Part shown: one piece after another, positions 2,020-27,876 of the stretch
Numbering within the stretch: position 1 is the stretch's first letter
How the letters are laid out: each line of letters starts with the position of its first letter
Assembly: GCA_043815885.1 (NCBI GenBank)
Contig: JBDRIL010000043.1
Location: 1-43,472, forward strand
Reading direction: 5' to 3'
Source of the DNA: an archaeon
Lineage (GTDB): Archaea > Iainarchaeota > Iainarchaeia > Iainarchaeales > 1-14-0-10-31-34
Length of the DNA stretch: 43,472 nucleotides
Notes under the pieces: generated by a model
Seen by the model: the letters and a program-made list of their open reading frames with translations, nothing else
Told to the model about the DNA's origin: nothing
Database searches by the model: none
Program-made: the position numbers and the translations under genes

Positions 2020-2100
2020 AATTGATTCAACAGGAATTCTTTTTTAGCTTTTTGCATATAACTACATTATGTTGGATTGCCCTTTTTGGAAGGGAGAAAT

Positions 2101-2637
2101 ATGGATTTGTTTTCGAAAATCAAGTCTGGCAAAATAGCAGTTATCCTGCATGCAAAATATTTCCATTTTGTGAACTGGTTATTCTCTAATCTCGTTAAGC
2201 ACGCGCCAACAAATAAGCTCAGGGTAGCCATCCTTAAAATTTCAAAGGCAGAAGTTGGCAAAGGCCTTCAGATACACAAAGGAAATGAAATCAATGATTT
2301 TACAAAATTAAAGATTGGTTCAAATGTCATAATCGGCCCAAAAAACTGTTTCTTTTCCAGGGGGGGCATTGAGATTGGTGATAATGTCCTTATAAGTGGG
2401 CATAGTAAATTTATAAGCCAGAGCCACAACACCAAAGGAAAAGAATTTGAATGCATGTATAAACCCATAAAGATAAAGGAAGGGGCATGGATAGCGATAC
2501 AAGTAGTTATCAATTATGGTGTAACAGTAGGCAGGAATGCAGTTATTGGTTCAGGTGCTGTTGTTAGGGAAGATGCCCCGGATAAGGCAGTTGTGATTGG
2601 GAACCCTGCAAGGGTTATCACTACAAGAGACAAATAA
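2101..2637 (+). CDS. Hexapeptide-repeat (left-handed beta-helix) sugar O-acetyltransferase
   Basis: LKIGSNVIIG, IEIGDNVLIS, IKIKEGAWI, VTVGRNAVIGSGAVV and IGNPARVI. ATG 2101 follows a GGGAG SD; the track start at 2077 is less likely. Confidence 0.9.
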   Translation: MDLFSKIKSGKIAVILHAKYFHFVNWLFSNLVKHAPTNKLRVAILKISKAEVGKGLQIHKGNEINDFTKLKIGSNVIIGPKNCFFSRGGIEIGDNVLISGHSKFISQSHNTKGKEFECMYKPIKIKEGAWIAIQVVINYGVTVGRNAVIGSGAVVREDAPDKAVVIGNPARVITTRDK

Positions 2638-2653
2638 AAATTAGCCAAACTGA

Positions 2654-3880
2654 TTATTTTAAAAGAATCAATTCAATTAATAGTGTTAAAAACAATAAAG
2701 CTATCGTCCAAAGCAATACATGTATAACTGTAAAAAGAGTGGAGTGGAAAAGAATTAATAAAATTATTTCCATTACAGCAAAAAAGATCATTGGAAAAAT
2801 TATTCTCTTGTTTTGAATTGCCAGATTGTAATATGTAATCAGGTTACAAAAGGAAAAAAAGAACATTGTTAGGCCAAAAAGCGGAAGCAGTTGAATTGCA
2901 ACAGGGTATTTTGGCCCAAGCAATAAATTAATTATGAAAGAAGGAAAAAACCAATAAGCGATGAATACAAGAAAAGAAAAAATGAAAACATATAAAAGGG
3001 ATTTTTTCAATAACCCCAAAGAACTCTTTTTAGCTGCATTCAGTTGGCTTGCCTTTGGAAACAAAACCATTGCAATCGCAGTTGAACCAAAAAACATTAC
3101 CTTCCCAAGGACAGAGGCAACAGCATAATTTCCTGCTTCATATGGGGAAAAGAAGTGTTTCACCAAAATTAAATCAATATTGAAGAAAATCATTAAACAA
3201 AAGAGAATTATTAAAGCAGGAAAAGAGTAAAGGTATATTTCCTTTGCAAAGACGCTTGTTTTAATTCTTTTCAGGTAATTTCTTAAGCCGTACAAGAGAA
3301 TAGCGGCTCCGGCAAGTGCTGCAAGGACAAAGGCAAACAATGCTCCAGCAACACCAAACCCGAGTAAAACTAGTATGGCAGCAAAAACTAGTTTTGAGGA
3401 AGAAAAAGTTAATGCATTCAAGTTATAGTAATTGAATTTCTGGAGTCCCTGAATTGCGCCAACAGCAATTGGAAGCAAGAAAGAATAGAAGACTATTACG
3501 GAAAGGATTAGGAATGGGATAGGAGAAGAAATGTGAAGGAAGTTTGATATAATGGGAGTGAAAATTACGAGTAGAAAAGCAAGTATTAAGGCAATTAAAA
3601 ACAGTTTTTTGAATGATTTGGAGAGAAGAGAAGAAATTTTTTCGTTTTCTTCTTTTGCCTTGAATTGGGATACGAATTTCGCGATAGTTGTTTGGATTGC
3701 AGCAGAGGGAACGGAAAGAATATAAAACAATGAAATTATTGTGGCAAGAACAGCGTACTCTTCAACCGAAAGCATTCTCCCCATTACTATGTGATAAATG
3801 TATGCAAGGCTTCCCGAAACAAGCTCTGTAAGCAAAACAAAAAAACTTTGTTTGCCTATCCCTCTGTCTTTATCATCCAC
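2654..3880 (-). CDS. Second Wzx/RfbX-family oligosaccharide flippase
   Basis: 408 aa polytopic protein with GRMLSVEEYAVL, GAIQGLQKF, DLILVKHFFSPYEAGNYAVASVLGK and VLFPK motifs. Confidence 0.88.
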   Translation of the reverse strand: MDDKDRGIGKQSFFVLLTELVSGSLAYIYHIVMGRMLSVEEYAVLATIISLFYILSVPSAAIQTTIAKFVSQFKAKEENEKISSLLSKSFKKLFLIALILAFLLVIFTPIISNFLHISSPIPFLILSVIVFYSFLLPIAVGAIQGLQKFNYYNLNALTFSSSKLVFAAILVLLGFGVAGALFAFVLAALAGAAILLYGLRNYLKRIKTSVFAKEIYLYSFPALIILFCLMIFFNIDLILVKHFFSPYEAGNYAVASVLGKVMFFGSTAIAMVLFPKASQLNAAKKSSLGLLKKSLLYVFIFSFLVFIAYWFFPSFIINLLLGPKYPVAIQLLPLFGLTMFFFSFCNLITYYNLAIQNKRIIFPMIFFAVMEIILLILFHSTLFTVIHVLLWTIALLFLTLLIELILLK

Positions 3881-4046
3881 ATCAATGCCCTCAATTGTTT
3901 AGACCGCTAAGATACATTATAATGAAGAATTATTAATTAAATTAGATGTTATCAGTTTAGGCGGTTATTCAAATTAATAGACATTCCCAAATTTATTCTT
4001 TATGTGCAATAAATTATTTTTAATGAATACTGGCATATTTATACAA

Positions 4047-5324
4047 ATGATTGAAAGAATATTCAAATTTTTTTCCAATGAAAAAAACCTGCTTTTATTC
4101 ATTGTCTTAATCTATTTTTTAGCGTCATTTTTCCAATATTCCTTCGATTCCAACTTTAAGATTACTGGTTTCTATTTTGGCTTGCCTCATATATACACTG
4201 GAGACGAACCTGAATACTTGTTGACTCTCAACAGCCTTCTAGCTGACGGGGATTTCAAGCTATGCAATAATTATGGGCAGGCAATGCAGGGAGGCTGTCA
4301 GGCAGGAATAACCTTTGCAGGAATAAAAGAAATAGCCGGAAGAACAGAAATGATTCCATGTTTCGAGCAAGGAGAAAGGCTTCCCTCCCGTTCAATCCTT
4401 AATGCATTAATTGCAGCCACTTTTATCTGGCCGTTTGCAAAAGATTCCTGCCTGCTTGAATCAATGGCAATATTTATGACACTAATTGTTTCACTTCTTG
4501 TCATATTCCTTTCATTAAAGATAATGCAATATTTTGATTTCTCTAAAAAGACAATTGCAATCAGTATTTTGGCACTTGCCTTTGCTAGCCCTTTCTGGTT
4601 CTACTCTAAAACTTTTTGGAGCGAGCCGTATGTATCCCTGTTTCTTGTTGCTTCAGTATATTGCTTTCTGAAAAAAAGATTTTTTGCTTCCGGGCTGTTC
4701 TTAGCATTAAACCTCTTAATAAAACCAGTTAACTTAATATTCGTAGTCGTATTTTTTATCTTCGGTTTTTTAAAGAGAGACAGAAAACAGATCATAAATC
4801 TTTTTATTGGTTTTCTGCTTGCCTTGCCTTTTTATTTTTTGATTAATTATTTTGTATTTGGAGACCCTTTATTTATTTCAAAAGCCAATGAGGCTTTTGG
4901 AGGGGATGTTTTTTCTGGGCTTATTGCGGCATTTTTTGCAGTTAAGTTTGGTTTTCTTCTGACTTTTCCTTTATTCCTATTTGTTATTATTGGCTTTTAC
5001 TTTTTTTTCAGAAAAAGGCCTTTTGAATCCCTTTTATTTTTTTCACTCTTGTTTGGCTACATGCTTTTTTGGGGGCAGGTTTGGTTTGTTGTTTTAGGGA
5101 CTGGAGGATACTCCTTCCGGTATTTTGCTCCGTTGATTCCTTTAATGATTATTCCAATCGGCTTTTTCCTTCAGGAAAATAAATGCAAGAAACTGTCTTT
5201 GCTTTTTTGGGCAATCCTTTTTATTTCTTTTTTGATAAATTTACAGGCAGCACTTACTCCACTGCTAATAGATAATCCTCCTTGGTTTTTGATTGAGTAC
5301 TTGTTTAAAACTATCAGTATATAA
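4047..5324 (+). CDS. GT-C fold membrane glycosyltransferase (PMT/ArnT-like)
   Basis: N-terminal TM, then a loop with GDEPEY acidic motif; FYSKTFWSEP, LLIKP and RYFAPLIP motifs; many TM segments. Start 4047 chosen because a TTTTTAAT box lies at 4017-4024 (track start 4002). Confidence 0.75.
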   Translation: MIERIFKFFSNEKNLLLFIVLIYFLASFFQYSFDSNFKITGFYFGLPHIYTGDEPEYLLTLNSLLADGDFKLCNNYGQAMQGGCQAGITFAGIKEIAGRTEMIPCFEQGERLPSRSILNALIAATFIWPFAKDSCLLESMAIFMTLIVSLLVIFLSLKIMQYFDFSKKTIAISILALAFASPFWFYSKTFWSEPYVSLFLVASVYCFLKKRFFASGLFLALNLLIKPVNLIFVVVFFIFGFLKRDRKQIINLFIGFLLALPFYFLINYFVFGDPLFISKANEAFGGDVFSGLIAAFFAVKFGFLLTFPLFLFVIIGFYFFFRKRPFESLLFFSLLFGYMLFWGQVWFVVLGTGGYSFRYFAPLIPLMIIPIGFFLQENKCKKLSLLFWAILFISFLINLQAALTPLLIDNPPWFLIEYLFKTISI

Positions 5325-6732
5325 CGAACCGCGGAAACATTTTTCTGTAATTAATTTCCTTTATTTGTTTCTTGCTCGCAACCAATTCGCTTATATCCAA
5401 ACCCATCTTTATTACTTCGTCAACATTTGCATAACAGAACAAGCCAAGCCTTCCAAAGCTGACCAGGTTATTGGTTTGTGTCAGGGAATTCAGTATTTTT
5501 GTTAGTCTTTTTTCATAATTTAATGAATAAATGGGATAGGCATGCGGGATTCTTTTAACAAAATAAAATTCAACATTCTTTCTATGCAAAAAATCATGTT
5601 CTTCAAATGCCTTCAAGCATTCTTCAAAGAGTTCTTTGTCTTTTTTGTTCCAGATGGCATCGTTTTCATTGCATGTAAACTCCACTACTAAACCATTTTT
5701 GCCTTTTGGAACAGCCTCCCTGCTGAACATCCCCAGTTCATAAGCCCTATTGAATGGAATCTTTGTCCCGGAAAAGTAAACCCACGGAGAACCAAAAACC
5801 ATTGGTTTTTTTATTCCTAAAAATAAAAGGGTTTCAGCTCTATATTCCAGGTTGCTTGCAGTGGAAACAACTTCTTCGGGAAGTTTTCCTTTAAGCAGGA
5901 AAACTAATTCATTCAAGGGAATTGTTGAAAGAACGAAATCGCATTCTTTGATTAGTGTTTGGTTTCCGCTCTTGAATTTGACTCTGTTTATTCTTTTCCC
6001 TTTAAAATCAAAGGAAATACTGCTGGAATTAAAAAATACGCTTCCATTGTTTTTTATTAAATCAGAATAAAATTTATCGCACACCTGCCCTATCCCTTTT
6101 CTTGGATAATAGTTTTCCATCATTGAAGGGTCTTCTGAGTGAAATCTTTTTTTCCCGGTAAGAGTTGAAATAATCAGTTCAAACAAACTCAGTACCGGAA
6201 TTCTTTTTTCAGCGAAATCCTTGGAAAGGTATTTTGGGTCAATACCCCACACCTTTGAGGCATAAGGCTTGAAGTAGATATCATAAAGCAGTTTTCCAAA
6301 CCTTCTGGTTACCCATTCCTCAAATGAATTGCCTTTCTTATTTTTACTCAGTCTTAATCTTGCTCTTGTAATTAAGAAATCTATTGCGCACAAGAAACTC
6401 AGCAAGGGATTGATGTTTCTGAAGACATCCATTCCCTTTAAAGGATACTTAACCCAGCGGTTCCTGTAAAAAATCTTTGAACTAATCCCCACTCTCTGGA
6501 AGTCATCCTTTAGTAATTCTTTCAGTAATTGTTCAACATCCTTGTGTACTGTGTGAATGTTATGCGGACCCAAATCAAATAAAAAGCCGTTCTTTTTAAT
6601 GGTTCTGGCGTTCCCTCCAATAAAGGAACTTTTTTCAAGTACTGTTACTTCGTGACCTTTTTTGGACAGATTCCATGCAGCACTCAATCCAGCAGGGCCT
6701 GCGCCAATTATAATGTACTTTATTTTAATCAC
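5314..6732 (-). CDS. FAD-dependent oxidoreductase (protoporphyrinogen-oxidase-like / UDP-galactopyranose-mutase-like family of glycan clusters)
   Basis: N-terminal IIGAGPAGLSAA...VLEK...IGG Rossmann motif; FDLGPH, FEEWVTRRFG, HAYPIY and GRLGLF. Confidence 0.85.
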   Translation of the reverse strand: MIKIKYIIIGAGPAGLSAAWNLSKKGHEVTVLEKSSFIGGNARTIKKNGFLFDLGPHNIHTVHKDVEQLLKELLKDDFQRVGISSKIFYRNRWVKYPLKGMDVFRNINPLLSFLCAIDFLITRARLRLSKNKKGNSFEEWVTRRFGKLLYDIYFKPYASKVWGIDPKYLSKDFAEKRIPVLSLFELIISTLTGKKRFHSEDPSMMENYYPRKGIGQVCDKFYSDLIKNNGSVFFNSSSISFDFKGKRINRVKFKSGNQTLIKECDFVLSTIPLNELVFLLKGKLPEEVVSTASNLEYRAETLLFLGIKKPMVFGSPWVYFSGTKIPFNRAYELGMFSREAVPKGKNGLVVEFTCNENDAIWNKKDKELFEECLKAFEEHDFLHRKNVEFYFVKRIPHAYPIYSLNYEKRLTKILNSLTQTNNLVSFGRLGLFCYANVDEVIKMGLDISELVASKKQIKEINYRKMFPRFVIY

Positions 6733-6737
6733 TCTTT

Positions 6738-7535
6738 TTATTTAGAAGAAGCTGGATTAATCTTTTTAAGGATAAGCATTTGAACGTAACTGTAATTTCC
6801 ATAAGGAGGCAAGTACTTAAAGAATTCAATGAATTTATTGTTATAGACTAATTCCTTTTTTCCTTCTATTAATGCTGCATACAGTGCCCTGCTTCCAAAG
6901 TAATAAGAACTAAGGAAATTTTCTAGGTTTTGGTTTTTATTGTTTCGTTCAAATTTGTTTTCAATGAATTCCAAGAATTTTTCTTTATCAAGGTAGTTGT
7001 TGTGAAAGGGTTGTTCAATTGGTTTTAAGCCCACTGCTTCCCTTGCATCATTGAGATTCTTTAATCCATCCGTGAAGGCTTCAATCATCAAAAAAACTCC
7101 TTCCTTTTTTAATACCCTGTGAATCTCGTTTAAGGCTTTCTTTTGGTTTTCCCAGGTTTTAAGATTAATAATGCATCTCTCTGTAAACACTATGTTAAAG
7201 GATTCATCTTCAAATTCTAAATTCTGTGCATCCCCGAGCTTAAATTGCGCTTTTTCCAGATTCCTTTTATTTGCAACCTCTAAAAGTTCTTTGGAAAAAT
7301 CAATGCAGGTTAGCTCCAAATCCAATTCTTTAACAATCCTTTCAGCAGTATAGCCATTCCCGCACCCGATCTCCAGGATTTTTGGCTTTCCTTTAAATTG
7401 TTTTTTAAGTATTCCAATTTGTTCAATGAGTTTTTCGACTTCTTTTTCTCTCACGAATTCATCCTTCATTGTGGATTGTTTTGACGCACCGAATTCTCCT
7501 GCAATTCTTGCATAGTGTTCTTTTATTTTATTCAT
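6738..7535 (-). CDS. Class I SAM-dependent methyltransferase
   Basis: ILEIGCGNG motif I, CIDFSKELL, GDAQNLEFEDESFNIV and EIHRVLKKEG. Confidence 0.9.
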   Translation of the reverse strand: MNKIKEHYARIAGEFGASKQSTMKDEFVREKEVEKLIEQIGILKKQFKGKPKILEIGCGNGYTAERIVKELDLELTCIDFSKELLEVANKRNLEKAQFKLGDAQNLEFEDESFNIVFTERCIINLKTWENQKKALNEIHRVLKKEGVFLMIEAFTDGLKNLNDAREAVGLKPIEQPFHNNYLDKEKFLEFIENKFERNNKNQNLENFLSSYYFGSRALYAALIEGKKELVYNNKFIEFFKYLPPYGNYSYVQMLILKKINPASSK

Positions 7536-8722
7536 TTTAGAAAACCTTGCACTGTTTTCTTTATTTTTTCTGCATTCAAGTGAATGGATTCAATTACTTC
7601 ACAGATTTTTTTTATCTCTTCTTCCTTTAAATCCGCATACATTGGAAGTGAAAGAATTCCTGCAGAGACAGATTCGGTGTTCGGAAGTTTTTCTGGAAGA
7701 GCTGATTCAAGGCTTCTGTAGGAAGGGAATCTGTTGCAGGGGGGATAGAAGTATTTTCTTGCAAAGATGTTGTCAGATTTTAGCGCAGTATGTAATTGGT
7801 TTCTGTTGAGACCGAATTCCTTTTCCAATACCTCTACCGTGAAATACTTGTAATTTATTTTTCCATCTGGATTGATTTTCTGGAATTTCAGGCCGGGAAT
7901 TTTTTCCAGGTTTGTTTTGTAAATCTGGTTTAATCTCCCTAGTTTTTCAATATCTTTTTCTATCTGTTCAAGGGCTTTCAAGCCTAATGCAGCAGAGAAT
8001 TCATTCATTTTTGCATTAGTTCCCCATGAAACCACTTCTTCTTCGCCTGCAATGCCAAAGTTCCTCATTAAAGAAATCTTTTCTGATAATTCTTTATTGT
8101 TTGTTGTGACTGCCCCTCCTTCCCCTGTAGTGAAAACCTTGGTTGCATGGAAACTGAATGCTTCTCCCTCCCCAAAAGAACCAATCTTTTTATCCAGGTA
8201 AGTTGAACCAAAAGCATGTGCGGAATCAAACAATAATTTCAGGTTATTGCTTTCAGCGATATCAGTAAGTTTCTTTATTTCAACTGGATTTCCAAAGATA
8301 TTTACTGCAAGGATTGCAGTAGTTTTATCGGTGATTAACTTTTCTAACTTACTTTCATCTAGATTATATGTTTCAGGATTGATGTCGCAGAAGACTGGTT
8401 TAAGGTTGTTTGCCTGAATTGCGTGAATCGTGGCAGAAAATGTAAAGGGAGTTGAAATAACTTCTCCATTTAAATCAAGGGATTTAATCAGCAACTCCAA
8501 GGCTTTTGTTCCATTGGAAACCAATGCACAGTGTTCTGCTCCAATGTAACCAGCAATTCTTTTTTCCAGTTCTTGAACGAATTTGCCGTGGTTTGTCAGC
8601 CACTTTGATTCAAAGATTTCTTTGAATAAAGGATGAACTTCTTCAAATTCAGGAATGCTTGGCTTGGCTACAAGGATTTTTTCTGAGAAAGCAGAGGTTC
8701 CTCCTAAAATTGCTGGTTTCAA
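7532..8722 (-). CDS. DegT/DnrJ/EryC1/StrS PLP-dependent NDP-sugar aminotransferase (VioA-like)
   Basis: VSNGTKAL, TPFTFSAT, FDSAHAFG, FSFHATKVFTTGEGGA (PLP lysine), NAKMNEFSAALGL and LSLPMY. TTG start; stop overlaps the next ATG (ATGA). Confidence 0.93.
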   Translation of the reverse strand: MKPAILGGTSAFSEKILVAKPSIPEFEEVHPLFKEIFESKWLTNHGKFVQELEKRIAGYIGAEHCALVSNGTKALELLIKSLDLNGEVISTPFTFSATIHAIQANNLKPVFCDINPETYNLDESKLEKLITDKTTAILAVNIFGNPVEIKKLTDIAESNNLKLLFDSAHAFGSTYLDKKIGSFGEGEAFSFHATKVFTTGEGGAVTTNNKELSEKISLMRNFGIAGEEEVVSWGTNAKMNEFSAALGLKALEQIEKDIEKLGRLNQIYKTNLEKIPGLKFQKINPDGKINYKYFTVEVLEKEFGLNRNQLHTALKSDNIFARKYFYPPCNRFPSYRSLESALPEKLPNTESVSAGILSLPMYADLKEEEIKKICEVIESIHLNAEKIKKTVQGFLK

Positions 8723-10308: not shown

Positions 10309-12309
10309 ATGAATAGAAAGAATGCTTCATTAAAAAAAATAATTGTTTTAGGACTTATTTTACTTATAATCGGAGTTGTATTCTTAAGCGGGCCGGCAAC
10401 TGCATTTTATATTACTGCTACCCCTACTTTAACTCACACGCCAGGAACAAAGGATGCAAATGTAACTGTAACCTTTTACAAGGAAAGATATGAAGCAATC
10501 GGGACAATTACTGCAAGACTGATTTATTTGGAGACTGATGGTAGTGGGAGTGGAACACTTTCTCCTGCCACAAGTTACGATGTTAACTGCTGGGCAAATA
10601 CTGATTATTATGATTATGGGCAAAGCCAGTATCTGTATGTGCTTCAGCCGAATGACTTGAATGTATTGGCTTATGGATACGTTGATAATGATGCAACTCT
10701 CACCCCGGGAGTGGATGAGAATTCAGCATATAAATTCAGGGACTGGAGTGATGATTTAAGCCTTACAGGGGCAGTAACAACTTATTATGGTTACGGATAT
10801 AATTATGCAGGAACATTTACCTGCACTTTTTACTTCACTGGACTGAATGATGGAGTGTTTGTTTCAGCACTGCCATTCATTAATGGTTTGCCTGTGAACA
10901 CTACTGGTTATGATTCAGGGCAGGCTGGAACAAATGTAGATGTAAATACAATCTTTGCAATAAAGACAATTGCTGCAAGTGGAGTTACTGACGTTAACTT
11001 TGTTAATGCTTCAGGAACTGAGAAGGCCTACTTCAGCATTCCTCAAGGAGGAACCAATGGAACTGCAGGAAGCGACTACATTACAATTGATGTAAATATT
11101 GCTTCCGCAACTAATCCAAGTAATGCAACACTATTAAGTGCTCCTAGATTCGAATTTGGTTCAAATGTAAGTAGTTTTACTATTGACGGGAATGGAGCAA
11201 CAACACTTGATTTGTTTTATACTGGACTTATTACTGATTCACAAGCTGAAAATTCAAACTTCAATATATGGAGGTTTTCAAGCGGAAGCTGGACAAAGAT
11301 TACTAGCGGAAGAAGTACAGACACAAGCATAGACAGAATAAGGGTTACAATTACTAGCTTCTCTGAATATGCAATGGGAACTGATACTAGTATAAGTGGA
11401 GGAGACCCCCCAGCTACAGGAGATGGTGACGGCACCGGCGGCGGTGGCGGCGACGGAGGGGGAGGCGGTGGAACGCCAGAAGCAAAAGAAGAAGTGCTTG
11501 CTGAAGTGACAATCACAAAGGGAATGACTTCAGAAGAATTAACGGCTATTTTAACTGAGGCAGGAGCATCAGAAACAGCAATAGAAAAAGCTATTGCAGC
11601 AGTAGGAAAAACCGAATTAACTAAAACTTATACAGTCTATAAGACAACTGCAGCGAATGGAACAGTAAGCTATAGAACGGAATTAAGTATTACTGTAAAG
11701 AATCCAGGAAAGACCTGGTTGAGGGAAGTAAAGGTAATAGAAAAAATCCCGAAAGGAATTGCAGCGAAGGCATCAGAGATAAACAGTGAATTTGATTTCA
11801 GTGTATTGGTCGAAGACCCAATAATTCAATTCAATATCCCTGAATTAAAGCCAGGCGAAACCAAAGAAATAATGTATTCAGTTCCAAAGAACATTATTCT
11901 AGCAGATGAAAAGTCATTGCAGGAACTTGCTTTGCCAATTCTGGCTGACTTCATTGAATTAACAGGAGAAGAAGTCTGTGCAGAAAAGAACTGTGATGAC
12001 TCAGATCCTTGTACAAAGGATTCATGTGATGTAACTACAGCAGAATGTACTCACACTACACTGCCTGATGGAACTGCATGTGGAGCAGGAAAGCAATGTA
12101 TTAGCGGAGTGTGTAAAGCAAAGTCAGTGGCAACCGGAGGAGTAGTAATGCCAGAAGAAGCTCCTATATGGGGATGGATAATAGGAATAATAGTAATCGT
12201 AATTATTGCAGGAGCAGGATACTATTACTACGAGTACTATTACAAGAAAGGCAAGGGAATAGGAAAACCAGCAAAAGAATCTGCAAAAGCCGCTAAGAAG
12301 ACTAAATGA
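10309..12309 (+). CDS. Secreted, C-terminally anchored cell-surface glycoprotein (S-layer/adhesin-like)
   Basis: Signal peptide, Thr/Tyr/Gly-rich beta region with 7 N-x-S/T sequons in the mature part, poly-Gly linker, Ig-like domain, Cys repeat (CDDSDPCTKDSCD...CGAGKQCISGVC), C-terminal TM and Lys-rich tail. Confidence 0.8.
   Translation: MNRKNASLKKIIVLGLILLIIGVVFLSGPATAFYITATPTLTHTPGTKDANVTVTFYKERYEAIGTITARLIYLETDGSGSGTLSPATSYDVNCWANTDYYDYGQSQYLYVLQPNDLNVLAYGYVDNDATLTPGVDENSAYKFRDWSDDLSLTGAVTTYYGYGYNYAGTFTCTFYFTGLNDGVFVSALPFINGLPVNTTGYDSGQAGTNVDVNTIFAIKTIAASGVTDVNFVNASGTEKAYFSIPQGGTNGTAGSDYITIDVNIASATNPSNATLLSAPRFEFGSNVSSFTIDGNGATTLDLFYTGLITDSQAENSNFNIWRFSSGSWTKITSGRSTDTSIDRIRVTITSFSEYAMGTDTSISGGDPPATGDGDGTGGGGGDGGGGGGTPEAKEEVLAEVTITKGMTSEELTAILTEAGASETAIEKAIAAVGKTELTKTYTVYKTTAANGTVSYRTELSITVKNPGKTWLREVKVIEKIPKGIAAKASEINSEFDFSVLVEDPIIQFNIPELKPGETKEIMYSVPKNIILADEKSLQELALPILADFIELTGEEVCAEKNCDDSDPCTKDSCDVTTAECTHTTLPDGTACGAGKQCISGVCKAKSVATGGVVMPEEAPIWGWIIGIIVIVIIAGAGYYYYEYYYKKGKGIGKPAKESAKAAKKTK
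11425..11472 (+). repeat. GGN/GGC low-complexity tract encoding a poly-Gly linker
   Basis: ggtgacggcaccggcggcggtggcggcgacggagggggaggcggtgga, a GC-rich patch in AT-rich DNA. Confidence 0.8.
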
Positions 12310-12358: not shown

Positions 12359-12468
12359 TTCAACGATTGACGTTGAAAAAAGTTTTTAATTCTATTTCTG
12401 TTATTTTTTATTGTATACCGAAGGTATACAATGTTTTTTGATAAAACTTTTCTAAAAGTTTTTTAATG
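12359..12468 (+). promoter_or_regulatory. Tandem BRE/TATA-like elements with three inverted repeats, upstream of pilus operon A
   Basis: TTCAACG-5-CGTTGAA (12359-12377), ATTGTATACC-GAA-GGTATACAAT (12410-12432) and AAAACTTTT-CT-AAAAGTTTT (12443-12462). AAAAGTTTTT(T)AAT occurs twice (about 12378-12390 and 12454-12467). Confidence 0.65.
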
Positions 12469-12505
12469 TATTTTTCTGATTTGCTGGAGAGTTGGTGTAA
12501 AGCAA

Positions 12506-14314
12506 TTGATTCTGAGACTGAATGAAAGGAAATGCAGTGAATGCAGGGACTGTTTGGCTAATTGCCCGAACAGGTTGACTGAATTAAGTGTATTGAAGTG
12601 CAGGCAATGTTCTTTTGAGGAAGCGAATTGTGTTAATGCATGCAGGCAGGGAGCATTCTATGAGATAGCAGAAGGAATAATTGGAGTGGATGAAGAAGCA
12701 TGCAATGGCTGCGGGGAATGCATTAAGGCATGCAAGGAGAAAGCAATCCAGTTAGTGAATGGAAAGGCAGCAAAGTGTGACCTTTGCGCAAAGAATAGTT
12801 TCATGATTGCCTGTTTAAGGGAGTGCGAGAAAGAAGCTATTTCATTGATTAAGACAGTGAAGGAAGTAAAGGAAATCGAGGGAATGCTTGGATTCAGGAT
12901 AAAGAATTTAAAGGAAGGAGAAATAAAAAAAATTCTGAAGAAAAGGGAAGAATTTGAGGTCATTGAAAACAGGGGCAATGAAAGGATTTATGTATTGAAG
13001 GATTTCCCGGAATTAACAAAACAGGAGGCAAAACTGCTTAGGGAAGTAATGGAGGAATTCCAGCAGAATGAATTTGAAAAAGGAATAAAGAAAGAGATTT
13101 ATTTTACTCTCATGGATTACTGTGAAAGGAATTTAATTGAATTAGAGGAAGAACAGGAAGAGTACCTGCTTGGATTGCTTGAATCAATGATTTATTCTTT
13201 TGGGCCTCTAACGAGTATTCTGAGGAATGACGAAATAGAGGAAATAAGCGTTATTGGTTTGGGGGAAATGAAGCCGGTAAGAATATTTGACAGGAGCTTT
13301 GGATGGATGAAGACAAACCTTTACTACTGCAGTGAAACAACGGTAAAGGATTTAGTCAATAAAATGGCTCGAGGGATTGGAAGAAGATTGACTCTGCAGA
13401 CACCAAAACTGAATGCAGTGCTGCCTGACGGCTCAAGGATTAATGCAATGATTCCCCCTGTTTCTTTTTCCGGGCCAACACTTACTATAAGGAAATTCAA
13501 GAAGAAACCCTTTACTCCAATCGAGTTAATTGAAAACAAGACTTTTTCTCTGGAGTTAATGGCGTTTATCTGGATGGCTCTCCAGACTGATACAAGTGTA
13601 TTGGTTGTGGGAAATACTGGTTCAGGAAAGACTTCTTCCCTAAATGCATTATTCTGCTTTATCCCAAAGGAAGAAAGGATTGTTGTAGTGGAGGAAACAC
13701 CGGAAATAATCCTGCCTCAAAAACATCTAATAAAACTGAGTATTGCAGAAAATCTGGGAATAGGAATGCAGGAACTAATAACTGACACGCTCAGAATGCG
13801 TCCGGACAGGGTGATAGTGGGAGAGATTCGTTCAAGAGAAGAAGTGGGAGCATTTATTGATACGCTTCTTGCAGGGCAGGGAAAGGGAAGTTATGCAACA
13901 TTTCACGCTCAAAGCGCGAAAGAAGCAATTGTAAGGCTTGAAAAGCTGGGGGTAATGGAGATTGATTTGGGTTCAATTGATTTAGTATTGGTGCAGAAAC
14001 GATGGAATCAAATAAATAAAGGTAAAGGAGCAAGCAAGGAAGTGAGAAGGATTGTCGAGGTAAGTGAAGTTAATGGCGGGGAAGAAGGAATTAAACTCAG
14101 AGAGCTTTATTCATTCAATCACAAGAGGAATAAACTCCAGCAAAAAAATGAAAGCGAAAAGGTTCTGGGAAAAATAAAGAACTGTTTCAGGATGAATGAA
14201 AAGGAAGTGAGAAAAGAATTGGGTAAAAGGAAAAAGCAGTTAAAAAAGTTTGGGAGAGAAAAACTTGAATTAAAGGAATTATTTGAAAGAATGAATGGTG
14301 AGGGTGATGATTGA
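12506..14314 (+). CDS. Type IV pilus/T2SS secretion ATPase (TadA/VirB11/FlaI family) fused to an N-terminal multi-[4Fe-4S] ferredoxin domain
   Basis: Residues 10-107 contain 16 Cys in four ferredoxin-type motifs. C-terminal part has Walker A GNTGSGKT, Asp box VEETPEI, LRMRPDRVIVGEIR and ATFHA. TTG start with GGTG SD. Confidence 0.92.
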   Translation: MILRLNERKCSECRDCLANCPNRLTELSVLKCRQCSFEEANCVNACRQGAFYEIAEGIIGVDEEACNGCGECIKACKEKAIQLVNGKAAKCDLCAKNSFMIACLRECEKEAISLIKTVKEVKEIEGMLGFRIKNLKEGEIKKILKKREEFEVIENRGNERIYVLKDFPELTKQEAKLLREVMEEFQQNEFEKGIKKEIYFTLMDYCERNLIELEEEQEEYLLGLLESMIYSFGPLTSILRNDEIEEISVIGLGEMKPVRIFDRSFGWMKTNLYYCSETTVKDLVNKMARGIGRRLTLQTPKLNAVLPDGSRINAMIPPVSFSGPTLTIRKFKKKPFTPIELIENKTFSLELMAFIWMALQTDTSVLVVGNTGSGKTSSLNALFCFIPKEERIVVVEETPEIILPQKHLIKLSIAENLGIGMQELITDTLRMRPDRVIVGEIRSREEVGAFIDTLLAGQGKGSYATFHAQSAKEAIVRLEKLGVMEIDLGSIDLVLVQKRWNQINKGKGASKEVRRIVEVSEVNGGEEGIKLRELYSFNHKRNKLQQKNESEKVLGKIKNCFRMNEKEVRKELGKRKKQLKKFGREKLELKELFERMNGEGDD

Positions 14315-15107
14315 AAAATTTTTTTCGGAACTGGAAAGGGAATTAATAAAGGGAAGAATCAATGAATCGGTTGAAGAGTACTTGAAGAAAAGGGGCTTTT
14401 ATTCAGTGATTCTTGCACTTACTGCCTTCTTTCTCTATTCTTTAATTGTGAGCAATCTAATTGAAGGAATTATTGTTGGAGGGATTGTGTTTGTTTTGGG
14501 GTTTTCATTTTTTTTGCTTTACCCAAAGGCAAGGAAGAACAGAATCAAGGCATTGATTGAGAGGGATTTGCCTTTTGCTTTAATGGCAATGGCAGTAGAG
14601 CTGAACCTGAATATCCCTTTTGAAAAAACAATAGAGAATACCGCGGGAAGGCAGTATGGAATTATTTCAGTTGAATTCAGTAAGGTAGTGAGAGAGATAA
14701 AACACTACGGAAGTTCATTACAGGAAGCATTATTTCATTTAAGCGAAAGAAATGATTCATTAATGCTGAAGAGAAGTATGGCCCAATTAGTAAGCATATA
14801 TGAGCATGGAAGCAAGACTGAAAGAGGAACTCCAATCAAAAGATTGGCGGAGGAATTGCTTTCAAAACAGAAGGCAGAGTCCAAGGAATTTTCAGGAAAA
14901 CTAGTGGTATTTTCTCTAGTGTTTATTGCTCTTTCCGCAATACTCCCAGCGTTATTCCAGTCATTTGTTTCAATTGGAAGCATGTTCTTGGAACTTGAGT
15001 TCACTGCATTGCAGGTAATAATTATTGTCACTGTTTTTTTTCCTTTGATAGATGCAGGCATACTTTTATTTATTAAATTAAAGACACCGGTGTTTTTGAA
15101 TGAATGA
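14307..15107 (+). CDS. Type II secretion F-domain membrane platform protein (TadB-like)
   Basis: Two N-terminal TMs, IERDLPFAL...YGIISVEF...GSSLQEAL T2SSF pattern, C-terminal TMs. Overlaps the ATPase stop; GGTGA SD before ATG 14307. Confidence 0.85.
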   Translation: MIEKFFSELERELIKGRINESVEEYLKKRGFYSVILALTAFFLYSLIVSNLIEGIIVGGIVFVLGFSFFLLYPKARKNRIKALIERDLPFALMAMAVELNLNIPFEKTIENTAGRQYGIISVEFSKVVREIKHYGSSLQEALFHLSERNDSLMLKRSMAQLVSIYEHGSKTERGTPIKRLAEELLSKQKAESKEFSGKLVVFSLVFIALSAILPALFQSFVSIGSMFLELEFTALQVIIIVTVFFPLIDAGILLFIKLKTPVFLNE

Positions 15108-16023
15108 TAATCCAATCATCAGGTGTTTTTTTTCAGGGGAAAGCATTAATGAATTCAAAGAAAAATTAAGGGAAAACGATTACAGCGGAGGAATGGAAAA
15201 AATTCTAAGGGATTCATTCATAGAGGGAATAATACTGCTTCTTTTATTTCTGGTGGTTTCAACATTAACAGAGATTAATGTCTTATACATAACTGGGTTT
15301 TCCTTGGCTGCATTTTTATCCCCCTTTTTATTCAATTACTTCTTCCAGCTCTACAGGTTCGAGCAGAGAAAGAGGGAAAAAGAAAAACTCATTCCTGATG
15401 TATTGCTTCAGGCTTCTGTGTTTCCTGAGGGAACTGATTCCATTCAGATAATCAAGTATTTGGCTAAGGAAAATTATGGGAATCTTTCAAGGGAATTCAA
15501 TAAAGCGCATTCAGAGATAAGGAAGGGAGCTTCGATTGAAAGGGCATTGAATAACCTTAAGAAGCGGTGCAGGAGCAGGATTATTGCGCGAGCAATGGAT
15601 TTACTTATCCAGGGACACAATAGCGGGGCAGAAATGAATTCAGTTTTCAGGGAGACGGCAGAGGATATCCTTGAAACACAGTCAATAATCAGGGACAGGA
15701 ATTCAACAATGATTATTGAAAAATACACTTTGCTTCTGGCCGGGGGATTTATTGTTCCATTAGTGTTGGGGTTAATTGTTGGAATGATTACTGGAATGAA
15801 TTTCAGTGGAATAAATGAATTAGGAATGGGAATGAGTCTAGAGCAGAGAAAGGAATTATTGAATGCCGCACTTCTCTCAAATCAGGTGTATATAGCAGAA
15901 TACTCTATTATTGCCTCTGTCTTTATTGCAAACCAGGAGGGAAACATAAAGAAAGCCTTCCTCTATGCATTAATTCTTCTCCCACTGAGTCTGCTTACCT
16001 ACAATCTTGCTAAGGGCTTCTAA
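15100..16023 (+). CDS. Type II secretion F-domain membrane platform protein (TadC-like)
   Basis: IPDVLLQA...YGNLSREF...KGASIERAL...SGAEM T2SSF pattern; TMs at both ends. Confidence 0.87.
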   Translation: MNDNPIIRCFFSGESINEFKEKLRENDYSGGMEKILRDSFIEGIILLLLFLVVSTLTEINVLYITGFSLAAFLSPFLFNYFFQLYRFEQRKREKEKLIPDVLLQASVFPEGTDSIQIIKYLAKENYGNLSREFNKAHSEIRKGASIERALNNLKKRCRSRIIARAMDLLIQGHNSGAEMNSVFRETAEDILETQSIIRDRNSTMIIEKYTLLLAGGFIVPLVLGLIVGMITGMNFSGINELGMGMSLEQRKELLNAALLSNQVYIAEYSIIASVFIANQEGNIKKAFLYALILLPLSLLTYNLAKGF

Positions 16024-16025: not shown

Positions 16026-16301
16026 ATGAGCAATAAAAAGAAGATTTATTTCATTAATCATGCAGAAGAAAGATTCCTTCAAAGAGGGATTCCAAAGAAC
16101 AGCATTAGAGAAATTTTGGCTAGAGGAATAGTTATTCCGGACCCAAAAAATATCCAGAGAAAGATATGCATTTATAAGAATGCAGACCACAGATATTACA
16201 GCATAGTATTTGAGGAAGTAGGAGAAGTTATATTTATTGTCACTGGGTATAACTCTGACAATTTAGAGATAAAATATTACAATAAGGTGAAATCGGAATG
16301 A
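16026..16301 (+). CDS. DUF4258-family putative toxin (predicted RelE-like ribonuclease)
   Basis: IYFINHAEERFLQRGI...IREIL motif and C-terminal IFIVTGY. Its stop overlaps the next gene (ATGA). Confidence 0.75.
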   Translation: MSNKKKIYFINHAEERFLQRGIPKNSIREILARGIVIPDPKNIQRKICIYKNADHRYYSIVFEEVGEVIFIVTGYNSDNLEIKYYNKVKSE

Positions 16302-16522
16302 CTCTGAAATGCATTAAATGCAACGCCCCCACCAAAAAAGCCATTACTGCAAGAAATTATTTCAAGAAATTTAAAATAGAGGGGATAAATATAGAGAAAT
16401 GCCCCAAATGCAGTGAAGAATATCTGGACGAAGAGGAGTATGAACGGATTAGGCTAAAATTAGAAAAAATAAGAAAAGAAATCAAGCCAATAAAATCCGA
16501 GATAAAACAGATCGTTATCTGA
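16298..16522 (+). CDS. YgiT/MqsA-type zinc-finger protein, putative antitoxin
   Basis: KCIKC...IEGINIEKCPKCSEEYLD pattern; translationally coupled to the DUF4258 gene. Confidence 0.78.
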   Translation: MTLKCIKCNAPTKKAITARNYFKKFKIEGINIEKCPKCSEEYLDEEEYERIRLKLEKIRKEIKPIKSEIKQIVI

Positions 16523-23702: not shown

Positions 23703-24236
23703 CTATGCAAAGTAAAGAAGGTAAACGATTCCGGTAGGAATCCATGGAAACAAATAAATCACAATGAATGATCCAACCAAAGTTGAACAGAATACTGCAA
23801 AGAATACATTTGCAATAAAAGGAAGGGAATACTTCTTCTTTAAAAAATCCATTGCAAATAATCCAACGAATTGAAGCGGGAGAAGGAATACTGTCAGAAT
23901 GAAACTCAATAGGATTACCTTGAATAAAGCCATTCCTATAAGGAACAGGTATTCTGTTGCAGTCATTTCAAATCCTTGGGGAAGGATTCCTGGATCACTC
24001 TGAGAGAAGCCTAAAGCCAAAGGAAATACATACATTGCCAAAACAAAAATGAATACTATAATGAAAGTTGAAATGAGAGAAGACTTTATCCAAGAAAGCT
24101 TGAATTTCTTGATTAGTTTTCTCTGAATGAATATCCCTATTAAAACCAATGCAAAGACAATTATTGATAAAAGGAAGCTCCCCTTAATCAAATCAAGCAA
24201 AGAAAAAACAATGTCTACTAGAAGATTCAGCACCAT
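23703..24236 (-). CDS. Polytopic membrane protein, probably co-transcribed with the 1492-aa protein
   Basis: 177 aa with 4-5 TMs; ends 12 nt before the 1492-aa start. TTTATAT box upstream on the minus strand (about 24259-24265). Confidence 0.8.
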   Translation of the reverse strand: MVLNLLVDIVFSLLDLIKGSFLLSIIVFALVLIGIFIQRKLIKKFKLSWIKSSLISTFIIVFIFVLAMYVFPLALGFSQSDPGILPQGFEMTATEYLFLIGMALFKVILLSFILTVFLLPLQFVGLFAMDFLKKKYSLPFIANVFFAVFCSTLVGSFIVIYLFPWIPTGIVYLLYFA

Positions 24237-24352
24237 GAAAGAATTATTGAAAGAAGTAATATAAATATATTACTAAATTCAAGGAATGAAGGGAAAAAAT
24301 AAAAAAGAATTGGCTTTCATTAATAACGAAAGCAGGGAAAAAAGGTGTTTTT

Positions 24353-25120
24353 ATGGTTAAGGACAGGCTTCCAAGAAGACTGAAAAGATTTGCAAGAAAG
24401 AAAGAGATTCCAAAAGGAGAGGAAGGGGAAAGAGTAAGCGCCGCATTAATGAGGGGAGCAAAAGAAAAGGAAGAGGTTCCTCACTTTAAGTTATACAAGA
24501 GAATGAGGGAAAAAGGAGAGACAAGGATTCCTTCAATGAACAAAGCAAAAACAGAGTTGGATAAATTCCAGGAGGAAAAGGGAAGGATTCCGACAGAAAA
24601 AGAAATGGATGAAATGGCAGAAAATTTATTCCAGCAGATAAAGGAAGGAAAGCTAAAGGAAGAGGAAATCGAGGAAGTAAAGGAAACCCCAAGAGAGAAA
24701 GAGGAAATTGGAAGCTATAAGGAGAGAGCATTAAGGAGAAGGGGGGAAAGGAGAGAAGATGTAAAAGAAGAAAAGCCAGCAGTAGGAATTGGAAAAGAAG
24801 AAGCAACCAAGGTAAAGGATTTATTCAAGGAAGAGTTAAAGGAAGAAAAAAAAGAAGAGGGAATGGAATTAATTAAAGAATTCAATGAAGAAGGAGAAGA
24901 AGAAACAGAGGAAGGAGAATTAGAGGGAATGGAAGAAGTTCCAGAGGAAGGAGAAAAGGAAAAATGCCCTCACTGCAATAATGTTACTACTGATATTATT
25001 TTTTGCCCTGAATGTGGGGAAGGCTTTTGCGAGAAATGCGCAGGAAAACCAAAGGCATCAGGAAAGGCAAAGAAATACAGGTGCCCCAGCTGCAAGAAAG
25101 AAGTAAAGATTGGAGTCTAA
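24353..25120 (+). CDS. Highly charged (Glu/Lys) protein with a C-terminal 8-Cys zinc-binding module
   Basis: CPHC...CPECGEGFCEKC...CPSC; AGGTG SD upstream. Confidence 0.8.
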   Translation: MVKDRLPRRLKRFARKKEIPKGEEGERVSAALMRGAKEKEEVPHFKLYKRMREKGETRIPSMNKAKTELDKFQEEKGRIPTEKEMDEMAENLFQQIKEGKLKEEEIEEVKETPREKEEIGSYKERALRRRGERREDVKEEKPAVGIGKEEATKVKDLFKEELKEEKKEEGMELIKEFNEEGEEETEEGELEGMEEVPEEGEKEKCPHCNNVTTDIIFCPECGEGFCEKCAGKPKASGKAKKYRCPSCKKEVKIGV

Positions 25121-25857
25121 ATTTCAGAAATATCAGTGCATTCAAGGTTTCCCCATTCATCTGCTTCCCTGTCGAAATCCTTTGGAGTCCAGAGAATCAA
25201 TCCAACAATCGTGTCTGCATCAAGTTTTCTTAACTCGTAAAAGTTAGATCCAGGGGGCTTATAGATTTCAAGCATCCTGATTCTGTGAGTGGCTTGGCCT
25301 GAAGCGCCAACACTCAATGCAAAGACATCAATGTCTTGCTTTCCATCGGTAAGTTCGCATAAATAATTCTTATCAATGGAAGAAATGCCTGTTATCACTC
25401 TGTTTTCAATTTCGTAGTCATATTCTGTTACATGCGCCAATACATAGATTACTTTTTGTGCTGAGCCCACATTAATCATGTAAAAAATGTAATTAAATGA
25501 CTTGCTTAAAGGCTTCATTATCTGGATAACGTTATTCGTTAAAAGGGGCTTGGAAAAATCCAAATCAAGTTCCTCGCCTTCATCTTCATTGTCAATTGCA
25601 TAGTCTTCCTTCACCATAGTCATCAAAAATTCGATTTCCTTTGCCTCATCAATTGTTTCATTTGGGAGGCGGGGGGCACTGGAATAAAGTATTGTCTTTA
25701 AAGCGGAATTAGCGTAATCAGAGACATAAGTGGAAGCCATATAGTCTTTCATTGAAGAGCCATACTGGTTAGTGAAAAAGAAAAGAAAAACAACCAAACC
25801 CATTACAATTAAGAGAAAGTATAGTGCATCAGTTATTGCTGCCTGTCCCTTGTTCAT
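25117..25857 (-). CDS. Pilin-like protein with class III signal peptide
   Basis: MNKG/QAAITDALYFLLIVMGLVVFLFFF; ATG overlaps the upstream stop (ATGA). Confidence 0.8.
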   Translation of the reverse strand: MNKGQAAITDALYFLLIVMGLVVFLFFFTNQYGSSMKDYMASTYVSDYANSALKTILYSSAPRLPNETIDEAKEIEFLMTMVKEDYAIDNEDEGEELDLDFSKPLLTNNVIQIMKPLSKSFNYIFYMINVGSAQKVIYVLAHVTEYDYEIENRVITGISSIDKNYLCELTDGKQDIDVFALSVGASGQATHRIRMLEIYKPPGSNFYELRKLDADTIVGLILWTPKDFDREADEWGNLECTDISEI

Positions 25858-27007: not shown

Positions 27008-27023
27008 TGCAGAAAACCTTTAT

Positions 27024-27584: not shown

Positions 27585-27745
27585 TATTTCCCTCCAAGAG
27601 TCTTCTTGGAGATTTCCCCTGCCTGCTGAAACATTGGCTTGATTACAGTAATCAAAAGAAGTGCAGCAATAATCAGGATTATGAGCATGTAAACAGAATT
27701 CCATTCACTCTGCTCTCTTTCATCAAACAAAAAACTTTTCACCAT
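27584..27745 (-). CDS. 53-aa mini-pilin (Flp-like), not in the ORF track
   Basis: Manual translation: MVKSFLFDEREQSEWNSVYMLIILIIAALLLITVIKPMFQQAGEISKKTLGGK. Stop overlaps the next ATG; TATA box and SD lie upstream. Confidence 0.8.
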   Translation of the reverse strand: MVKSFLFDEREQSEWNSVYMLIILIIAALLLITVIKPMFQQAGEISKKTLGGK

Positions 27746-27754
27746 ACAAGTAAA

Positions 27755-27873: not shown

Positions 27874-27876
27874 GAG

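Follow-up and report, generated by a model that had tools for sequence, protein, structure and literature searches.

A predicted four-cluster iron-sulfur module at the N-terminus of a type IV filament assembly ATPase from DPANN archaea

We describe here a gene of the archaeal contig JBDRIL010000043.1 (assembly GCA_043815885.1), which was analyzed at its full length of 43,472 bp and is referred to below as the window. The contig belongs to a genome of 1.16 Mb from the order Iainarchaeales, which is distributed over 62 contigs and is 91.7% complete. The gene encodes a protein of 602 amino acids (aa) composed of two parts: residues 1–117 contain 16 cysteines in four ferredoxin motifs, while residues ~130–602 form an intact assembly ATPase of the FlaI/CpaF/GspE type. 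Sequence comparison and structure prediction support the view that the N-terminal part is a HycB/DmsB-type module with ligands for four predicted [4Fe-4S] clusters. The interpretation that we favour, tentatively and at a little below an even chance, is that this module serves as an oxygen- or redox-sensitive regulatory front end on the motor of a type IV filament machine with the 'system 1' (Epd-like) layout.

The fused gene and its cysteine-rich domain

The gene was first pointed out in an annotation made from the sequence alone (the first-pass annotation), which described a continuous frame leading from an iron-sulfur (Fe-S) domain into an intact ATPase and followed by two T2SSF platform genes. 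The list of open reading frames (ORFs) and the Pfam matches agree with this description, and the translation places the 16 cysteines exactly where they had been reported, at residues 10/13/16/20, 32/35/42/46, 66/69/72/76 and 91/94/103/107. The same two-part architecture is shown by full-length homologues at 42–57% identity. Since these homologues share a start at the same alignment column (M-[RKL]-L) and keep C10, C13, C16 and C20, the TTG start of the gene is supported. The public gene call for the protein (P0001, 579 aa) begins 23 codons downstream, at an internal TTG, and cuts off cysteine motif I (region 12506–12574); database copies of the 602-aa protein therefore under-report the domain.

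The junction region 12800–12950, whose read support had been singled out as worth confirming, is bridged without gaps by contigs of two studies. One of them (X1), from a public run that possibly represents the source sample, covers 628 nt across 12454–13081 with 2 differences; the other (X3), from a separate study, covers 280 nt across 12722–13001 with 4 differences. Neither joints nor indels were found within the fused ATPase gene in the public-run contigs. The sequence occurs in groundwater-type habitats. The domain fusion is real, and an assembly artefact is excluded at the junction.

The structure of residues 1–135 was predicted by AlphaFold2 (AF2) using an alignment of 54 fused sequences, with a predicted local distance difference test score (pLDDT) of 93.3 and a predicted template modelling score (pTM) of 0.81. 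Its best structural match is E. coli HycB (7z0s_B; Z 14.4, root mean square deviation 1.9 Å, 114 of 135 residues aligned by VIA-align), followed by the Fe-S subunit of an aldehyde oxidoreductase (AOR; 9mqx_E, Z 13.6), HycB3 of the hydrogen-dependent CO2 reductase (HDCR; 7qv7_A, Z 13.5) and WOR5 (6x6u_B, Z 12.1). Foldseek and VIA-align agree in grouping the domain with solved four-cluster Fe-S subunits, including also PsrB, ArrB and FdnH. A Z of at least 8 was obtained for 23 chains, and among the matches listed all are four-cluster subunits or domains. By sequence, the best solved relatives are the MvhB polyferredoxin (4.7e-9) and NrfC/PsrB (1.1e-8). The first-pass annotation had compared the cysteine spacing, including K-C-D-L-C at residues 90–94, to that of 4x[4Fe-4S] subunits of the DmsB/HycB/CooF type, and this comparison is borne out by both the fold match to HycB and the sequence matches.

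Among Pfam families, Fer4_7 matches residues 31–80 with 33.3 bits (cut-off 27), and Fer4_6 and Fer4 are also above their cut-offs, so that the Fer4 families together span residues 31–82. The protein does not reach the equivalog models of DmsB (TIGR02951; 32.1 bits vs 214.1) and NrfC (TIGR03149; 31.5 bits vs 377.6). Fer4_RLI (PF04068) gave no match in the 602-aa protein at E ≤ 0.01, and it matches the real ABCE1 of the genome. With HycB, HycB3/4 of HDCR, the small subunits of AOR and WOR5 and the DmsB-NrfC-PsrB proteins the domain has in common the four motifs, the long spacers in motifs II and IV, the Lys before motif IV and the nested two-lobe fold, with Z values of 11–14.4 across 110–127 residues against four-cluster subunits of this family. 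It differs from them in being shorter (117 aa vs 150–290) and in being fused to an ATPase, with no catalytic subunit or membrane-anchor partner.

Clostridial ferredoxins with two [4Fe-4S] clusters superpose on motifs II and III only (residues ~28–86, Z ~6.6), and the Fe-S domain of ABCE1 (6tmf_d) aligns with the inner lobe only (residues 28–85, Z 6.6). These partial alignments point to a nested topology, with motifs II and III in an inner lobe and motifs I and IV in an outer one. In such a topology the predicted ligand sets comprise the first three cysteines of motif I with the fourth of motif IV, the first three of IV with the fourth of I, the first three of II with the fourth of III, and the first three of III with the fourth of II.

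All 16 cysteines are invariant or at least 90% conserved in the 54 fused sequences, and G129 and W130 are at least 90% conserved in the same set. In total 263 relatives were fetched, of which 94 have at least eight cysteines, and mostly exactly 16, within the first 130 residues. When the query was aligned with 93 fused relatives, 72 of the 94 rows proved to keep the complete set of 16. Three proteins (P0027, P0046 and P0157) jointly lack C10, C13, C16 and C107 and retain C20, a pattern that is partly seen in P0146 as well; P0169 jointly lacks C32, C35, C42 and C76 and retains C46, and in P0131 both of these sets are gone. The remaining exceptional rows miss only N-terminal cysteines and may be short gene calls. 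The sets lost as units coincide exactly with the cysteines that would ligate one cubane each in a nested fold, and because natural variants lose whole cubane sets, the cysteines probably take part as [4Fe-4S] ligands rather than in zinc binding.

These observations would have a trivial explanation if the assembly were chimeric, if two separate genes had been taken for a single one, or if the domain were a functionless cysteine-rich remnant that binds Zn. Such an explanation could be argued for by the TTG start and the later start of the public call, and by the absence of the usual Pro after the last cysteine of a motif, which the first-pass annotation had noticed in three of the four motifs and which the translation bears out, Pro following only C20. 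This residue is variable among homologues, and its absence is no sign of decay. The trivial explanation is at odds with the single open frame, with the junction bridged in two studies, with the constancy of the cysteines and their loss in cubane-type sets, and with the fold match at Z 14.4; moreover, 51 of the 215 genomes surveyed in the phylum contain fused homologues, and other DPANN lineages have them too. An artefact can thus be regarded as practically excluded.

As to the ATPase part, residues 126–602 were compared by phmmer with solved proteins, among which GspE of A. fulgidus (2oap, 3.5e-47), CpaF (1.9e-42) and FlaI (3e-37) are the most similar. The motifs that we take to be the Walker A, Asp box, Walker B/catalytic Glu and His box are intact, being invariant or at least 90% conserved (24 and 54 homologues). 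Since the score against the FlaI/ArlI equivalog (NCBIfam NF058587) is far below the cut-off (233.2 bits vs 550), the protein is not considered to be an archaellum motor. The AF2 model of the full-length protein has a pLDDT of 90.7 and a pTM of 0.79. From residue ~130 on, the core resembles GspE (2oap), CpaF/TadA (8rkd, 9e24) and FlaI/ArlI (4ihq, 4ii7) in its N-terminal helical/beta and RecA-like C-terminal domains and in the platform genes behind it, while no description of an Fe-S domain on GspE, CpaF/TadA or FlaI/ArlI was found in the literature.

The protein is the assembly ATPase of a minimal machine for type IV filaments, which is made up of the ATPase and two half-size platform proteins. 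This arrangement of one ATPase and two platform genes is the basis on which we assign it to the system 1 (Epd-like) layout, and the compact HycB-type module takes the place of the usual variable N-terminus of the ATPase. A platform gene directly follows the ATPase gene in 18 of the 19 loci compared (see below), the exception being L032, where no platform ORF was clustered. As a terminator-like hairpin separates the upstream gene, the transcription unit likely comprises the ATPase gene and the two platform genes. No RNA data set was listed as holding the gene.

Distribution of the fusion and its relation to oxygen defence

The phylum survey included 215 genomes and was performed with a 125-aa domain query at E ≤ 1e-8. 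Matches were found in 53 genomes representing 24 of 79 genera; in the other 162 genomes the domain was not found. Two genomes (G063 and G122) were excluded as their only match lies in non-ATPase frames of 285 and 277 aa, which leaves 51 fused genomes, 44 of them with an open frame of at least 500 aa. According to their source names, the homologues include proteins from Diapherotrites and Iainarchaeum metagenome-assembled genomes (MAGs), Undinarchaeales and Micrarchaeia. The domain is absent from all eight remaining genomes of the window's own family, in which the best ATPase match begins at residue 97–127 of the query, at 46–58% identity. Stand-alone copies of the domain lineage are limited to three matches on contigs of 1.7–5.7 kb, which may be fragments of fused genes.

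Two further possibilities were considered and rejected. A split form of the protein in unfused relatives is not supported, the domain being found neither in the eight own-family genomes nor in the 162 genomes mentioned above. Mis-binning of the contig was rejected as well: at locus L034, from a genome of the window's family, the genes stand in the order seen in the window, and the small cluster-specific gene c38 is likewise present.

The window was then compared with 18 related loci (19 loci in total). Both fused and unfused genes are located in the same neighbourhood, which includes the ATPase gene, two T2SSF genes, a PAC2 gene and a gene of ~1400 aa on the other strand, often with a gene for a large surface protein upstream of the ATPase. 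Fused and unfused ATPases are therefore positional orthologues. The unfused proteins start a few residues before the linker helix (...E.E..LGW...), and some of them retain remnants of the end of motif IV.

A FastTree phylogeny was constructed for 199 ATPase cores after removal of the N-domain columns; ids above P0215, proteins with lengths outside 430–720 aa, P0001 and P0003 were left out. On this tree, 33 changes are required to account for the fused state, and well-supported branches force at least 14 of them; fused forms are found on the deepest branches, next to outgroup paralogues. Because the domain and the junction are homologous throughout, one early gain with many deletions is the economical reading. 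The module is an optional, probably ancestral add-on of an orthologous DPANN ATPase and was deleted many times; the tree alone cannot separate gain from loss.

The presence of the fusion was further compared with the type of oxygen defence. Superoxide dismutase (SOD) of the Fe/Mn type was revealed in 96 of 215 genomes and superoxide reductase (SOR) in 72, and the two are nearly mutually exclusive: 93 genomes have SOD only, 69 SOR only, three both and 50 neither. It should be mentioned that this split divides the DPANN phylum cleanly into two oxygen-defence types.

The fused ATPase was found in 30 of the 69 SOR-only genomes and in only 2 of the 93 with SOD only; it is present in all three genomes with both enzymes and in 16 of the 50 with neither. 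In the genome studied here the SOR gene adjoins a rubrerythrin gene, and no Fe/Mn SOD was found. When genera are scored by majority, SOD is present in 2 of 22 fused genera vs 31 of 57 unfused ones. The Fisher values are 2e-9 and 1.6e-7, and both overstate the association as the genomes are kin. Within families, the contrast goes in the expected direction in f1 (SOD in 0/1 fused vs 6/8 unfused genomes), in f21 (0/1 vs 3/3) and, weakly, in f34 (0/8 vs 1/6); families f3 and f10 are uninformative for this contrast. The module is disfavoured in SOD-type lineages. Pyruvate:ferredoxin oxidoreductase proved uninformative as a discriminating partner, since POR_N is present in 175 of 215 genomes, fused and unfused alike.

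The first-pass annotation had suggested that the filament machine may be gated by oxygen or redox state. This suggestion fits the scarcity of the fusion in SOD-type relatives and its frequency in SOR-type ones; a structural or an electron-carrying domain would fit them equally well.

Possible roles of the module on the filament motor

The role of a redox-sensitive front end can be imagined as follows. The clusters would be assembled, and possibly reduced by 2-oxoacid:ferredoxin oxidoreductase and the ferredoxin pool. The folded, cluster-loaded domain would pack on the N-terminal region of the ATPase and so permit the hexamer to function, while oxidation or loss of the clusters would cause the domain to unfold or be released, and filament assembly would be turned off or altered. 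In this way the building of filaments by an anaerobic, host-dependent cell would be tied to anoxia and to its Fe-S or reducing-power status. The genome contains an IscS and IscU pair on contig C30, genes of small ferredoxins of 64 and 93 aa, and a 2-oxoacid:ferredoxin oxidoreductase gene (POR_N, C30:15837–16502); SufBD was not found in this 91.7%-complete genome. By its gene content, the cell appears able to make Fe-S clusters and to have electron donors for them.

The packing of the domain on the core was modelled by docking residues 1–128 against residues 129–602 as split chains, with the four clusters riding along, in three runs and with three controls. The resulting score of 0.32 (runs 0.00, 0.32 and 0.47; best control 0.00) counts as weak support. 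In the calibration, 116 of 157 solved complexes came up to the mark, as did 2 of 215 mismatched pairs; scores of ≤0.60 include only 18 of the 157 solved complexes and both of the passing mismatches. Agreement between the runs extends to at least 69% of contacts, with a partner pLDDT of at least 84. A recent census puts forward, in its main text, the proposal that the N-terminal extensions of archaeal type IV filament ATPases act as interfaces specific to each system (PMC13705601).

Several observations weigh against a sensory role. The docking prediction is weak, one of the three runs having scored 0.00. The SOD/SOR pattern is confounded by kinship, with about three informative within-family contrasts; in family f8 it is opposite (SOD in 4/19 fused vs 0/3 unfused genomes), and in the SOR-type family f11 the domain is lost (0/23 fused, while 15/23 carry SOR). 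The pattern shows that oxygen matters to the domain. A sensor and an oxygen-labile Fe-S domain of any other kind would both produce it, and it gives no means of choosing between the three readings considered here. In 7 of the 51 genomes counted as fused, by similarity, the domain lies in frames shorter than 500 aa at contig ends or breaks; some rows counted as unfused may be mis-called starts, such as P0076, which begins inside motif IV; and the tree was made by FastTree only. None of the 13 class III signal-peptide matches of the genome is located on the contig of the fused ATPase. Furthermore, cluster binding, oxygen lability and an effect on ATPase activity are things that we infer. The Fe-S sensors known to us use one cluster, and the conserved chain of four looks like an electron conduit, every close structural relative being an electron-transfer subunit.

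The latter point leads to an alternative that we consider somewhat unlikely, namely that the module is a working electron conduit. Its four clusters would form a wire of ~35–40 Å that carries electrons from reduced ferredoxin to an acceptor in the basal part of the machine, namely the platform, a pilin or cargo, or the wire of another subunit of the hexamer, and the electron flow would itself be part of the function. Besides the nature of the close structural relatives (HycB, HycB3/4 of HDCR, the small subunits of AOR and WOR5, PsrB and FdnH), this possibility is favoured by the persistence of the complete 16-ligand chain in 72 of 94 fused proteins, by the 2-oxoacid:ferredoxin oxidoreductase and small ferredoxins encoded in the genome, and by the near absence of stand-alone copies of the domain. 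What speaks against it is the lack of a conserved catalytic or membrane redox partner adjoining the gene in the 19 loci or elsewhere in the 43-kb window: neither a Mo/W enzyme, a hydrogenase, an NrfD-type anchor nor any other catalytic redox partner was detected among 35 window ORFs (Pfam) and the conserved clusters of the 19 loci. The first-pass annotation had also seen no adjacent catalytic subunit of an oxidoreductase, which holds for the related loci too. Moreover, variants that have lost an outer cluster, or two clusters, persist in nature, and in about three quarters of the phylum the ATPase and platform pair occurs without the domain and without a stand-alone replacement (162 of 215 genomes, E ≤ 1e-8). 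We know of no redox cofactor in T2SSF platform proteins.

According to the other alternative, likewise unlikely in our opinion, the module is redox-inert, and its clusters only hold a small domain rigid, as in ABCE1 or in subunit D of the archaeal RNA polymerase. The domain would then offer an interaction surface for a lineage-specific accessory protein or contribute to the stability of the hexamer. Several Fe-S domains on proteins not known as redox enzymes are indeed encoded by the same genome, on ABCE1 (Fer4_RLI and ABC_tran), RpoD and a PGK-Fer4_22 protein, and it is the Fe-S domain of ABCE1 that aligns with the inner half of our model. In addition, an oxygen-labile structural domain would explain the SOD/SOR pattern equally well, and the census main text proposes the N-terminal extensions of type IV filament ATPases as interfaces for accessory proteins (PMC13705601). 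On the other hand, the positional orthologues use the same two platform genes without the domain, so the core machine cannot require it for docking. In the loci compared, the domain is accompanied by no accessory gene, and four clusters would be costly for a mere scaffold.

Genomic surroundings, known systems and significance

The features of the gene and of its surroundings are listed in Table 1. By the annotation of its ORFs, the window is a cell-surface island. Relatives of the 666-aa surface protein encoded upstream (cluster c5) precede the ATPase in 6 of the 19 loci (the window, L023, L024, L025, L036 and L038). A second secretion-type ATPase of 763 aa (31384–33675, minus strand), whose N-terminal ~370 aa form an extension not matched by any family, heads nine same-strand ORFs without Pfam matches (23703–33675, minus strand); this run may represent a second filament or secretion module. 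A gene of the exosortase/archaeosortase family (34848–35372, plus strand) is located beside a surface-protein gene (35923–43470, plus strand) that runs off the window and encodes more than 2516 aa with CarboxypepD_reg-like repeats. At 16026–16522 (plus strand), a DUF4258-like gene shares 4 nt with a small MqsA/zinc-ribbon-like gene that overlaps it. The pair looks like a toxin-antitoxin system inserted between the platform genes and the PAC2 gene, and it is missing at that position in the 18 related loci.

Table 1. Features of the fused ATPase gene and its neighbourhood in the window
Feature	Coordinates	Strand	Basis
Fe-S domain and type IV filament assembly ATPase, whole gene	12506–14314	+	one 602-aa ORF, TTG start; Pfam T2SSE and Fer4 families
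HycB/DmsB-type domain, residues 1–117, predicted four [4Fe-4S] clusters	12506–12856	+	AF2 model, structural alignment, Cys conservation
Cys motif I, CxxCxxCxxxCP (C10, C13, C16, C20)	12533–12568	+	translation
Cys motif II, CxxCx6CxxxC (C32, C35, C42, C46)	12599–12643	+	translation
Cys motif III, CxxCxxCxxxC (C66, C69, C72, C76)	12701–12733	+	translation
Cys motif IV, KCxxCx8CxxxC (C91, C94, C103, C107)	12776–12826	+	translation; K90 invariant
Linker helix (residues 118–128, ends in conserved L-G-W/F) and small beta unit	12857–13000	+	model secondary structure; kept at N-terminus of unfused orthologues
ATPase core (Pfam T2SSE match)	13382–14014	+	residues 293–503, 122.3 bits, cut-off 24.9
Walker A, GNTGSGKT	13610–13633	+	translation, homologue conservation
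Asp box, ERIVVVEETPE	13673–13705	+	translation, homologue conservation
Walker B/catalytic Glu, LRMRPDRVIVGEIR	13790–13831	+	translation, homologue conservation
His box, SYATFH	13889–13906	+	translation, homologue conservation
Platform protein gene 1 (T2SSF, 270 aa)	14295–15107	+	Pfam 29.9 bits, cut-off 25.2; 20-nt overlap with ATPase gene
Platform protein gene 2 (T2SSF, 307 aa)	15100–16023	+	Pfam 43.2 bits; 8-nt overlap with platform gene 1
Terminator-like hairpin and T-run between surface-protein gene and ATPase gene	12409–12433	+	11-pair stem
Glycan-synthesis genes	565–8722		
Predicted surface protein, 666 aa: N-terminal signal/anchor, Cys-rich region, C-terminal membrane anchor	10309–12309	+	

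The intergenic region upstream of the ATPase gene contains an element (12404–12460) composed of a T-run, a hairpin with the stem TTGTATACC/GGTATACAA and the loop GAA, and a second T-run followed by GATAAAAC. It is present in the genome in 18 copies on 15 contigs (e.g., G000 C2:1529, C20:275 and C48:3707), some with compensatory changes in the stem (GTATGCC..GGCATAC, GTATCCC..GGGATAC). In run X1 it reaches a depth of 84, compared with ~5 over the gene, and loose ends flank it on either side; no Rfam family matched it. The element resembles a shared cassette of terminator and promoter or, alternatively, a small structured element.

Six secretion-type ATPase genes were found in the genome, and the Fe-S domain is present only on the one described here. 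In two of the others, G000:C13:8462–11752 (plus strand, 1096 aa) and G000:C60:16229–19345 (plus strand, 1038 aa), the T2SSE match is split by a long insert resembling an intein with a homing-endonuclease region. The genome has two prepilin peptidases (Peptidase_A24) and 13 Class_IIIsignal matches, eight of them above the cut-off; one of the peptidase genes and most of the class III signal-peptide genes lie just downstream of the C13 ATPase gene. As a separate observation, a 732-aa frame at G000:C60:6481–8682 (minus strand) combines phosphoglycerate kinase (PGK, 339 bits) with a C-terminal Fer4_22 dicluster domain and adds another example from this genome of an Fe-S domain carried by an enzyme with no known redox chemistry.

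The machine to which the fused ATPase is assigned has been described in a census published in 2026, according to whose main text system 1 (Epd-like) consists of one ATPase and two platform genes and occurs in Nanobdellati (DPANN), where the ATPase and platform genes are adjacent and the pilins scattered (PMC13705601). The window agrees with this in its ATPase gene and two T2SSF genes, the prepilin peptidases and class III signal-peptide genes being elsewhere in the genome. It differs in the Fe-S module, since the main text of the census mentions no ferredoxin or 4Fe-4S domain on the ATPase (PMC13705601).

The nearest functional precedent, by analogy, appears to be AapX (arCOG07320) of the Aap pilus of Sulfolobus acidocaldarius, which is annotated as an Fe-S oxidoreductase, is encoded beside the pilus ATPase and is required for pilus assembly (PMC11178785; PMC13705601). 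It differs in being the product of a separate gene in Thermoproteota. ABCE1/Rli1, which is present in the genome, likewise combines an ATPase with a ferredoxin-type Fe-S domain at its N-terminus, and the role of this domain is other than classical electron transport; the protein has two clusters rather than four and is an ABC rather than a secretion-type ATPase. Finally, the bacterial ATPases GspE, PilB and MshE resemble the protein in having sensing or docking N-domains (MshEN, which binds cyclic di-GMP, and N1, which binds GspL), and EpsE has a tetracysteine Zn site (PMC4624772; PMC5061722). Their folds and ligands are unrelated, and none of them is an Fe-S module.

The literature covered, including the main text of PMC4858521 and PMC13705601, was found to contain no report of a type IV filament ATPase that bears a ferredoxin or 4Fe-4S domain. 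The impression of uniqueness conveyed by the first-pass annotation has to be qualified, since the fusion as such is common in DPANN MAGs and has already been annotated automatically: a homologue is named 'Flp pilus assembly CpaF family ATPase/Fe-S-cluster-containing hydrogenase component 2' by the Joint Genome Institute (JGI). The parts belong to known families, and it is their combination that is new. What this work adds is that fused and unfused genes are positional orthologues with repeated loss of the domain, that natural variants lose whole ligand sets, and how the fusion is distributed over SOD- and SOR-type genomes.

The ATPases of type IV filaments belong to the most thoroughly studied motors of prokaryotes, and their known inputs are nucleotides, cyclic di-GMP, partner proteins and a structural zinc site. 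To these a conserved four-cluster Fe-S module would add an input, or a cofactor, of a new kind. Surface filaments of DPANN archaea are thought to mediate attachment to the host, and the near-exclusion of the module from SOD-type relatives provides a concrete, testable ecological link to oxygen, while the natural variants that have lost single clusters are ready-made material for structure-function studies.

The parallel with AapX suggests that the connection between Fe-S proteins and pili may extend beyond one lineage. It is improbable, and yet worth stating, that the module is a live electron wire, so that six wires on a hexameric motor would draw on the ferredoxin pool, and filament assembly would depend on reducing power or electrons would be passed to the platform, the filament or the site of contact with the host. 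If electrons were passed onward, the pilus machine of a DPANN symbiont would double as a redox link. If this is true, then together with the need for AapX in Sulfolobus pili it would indicate a general, so far unrecognised role of Fe-S chemistry in the assembly of archaeal type IV filaments.

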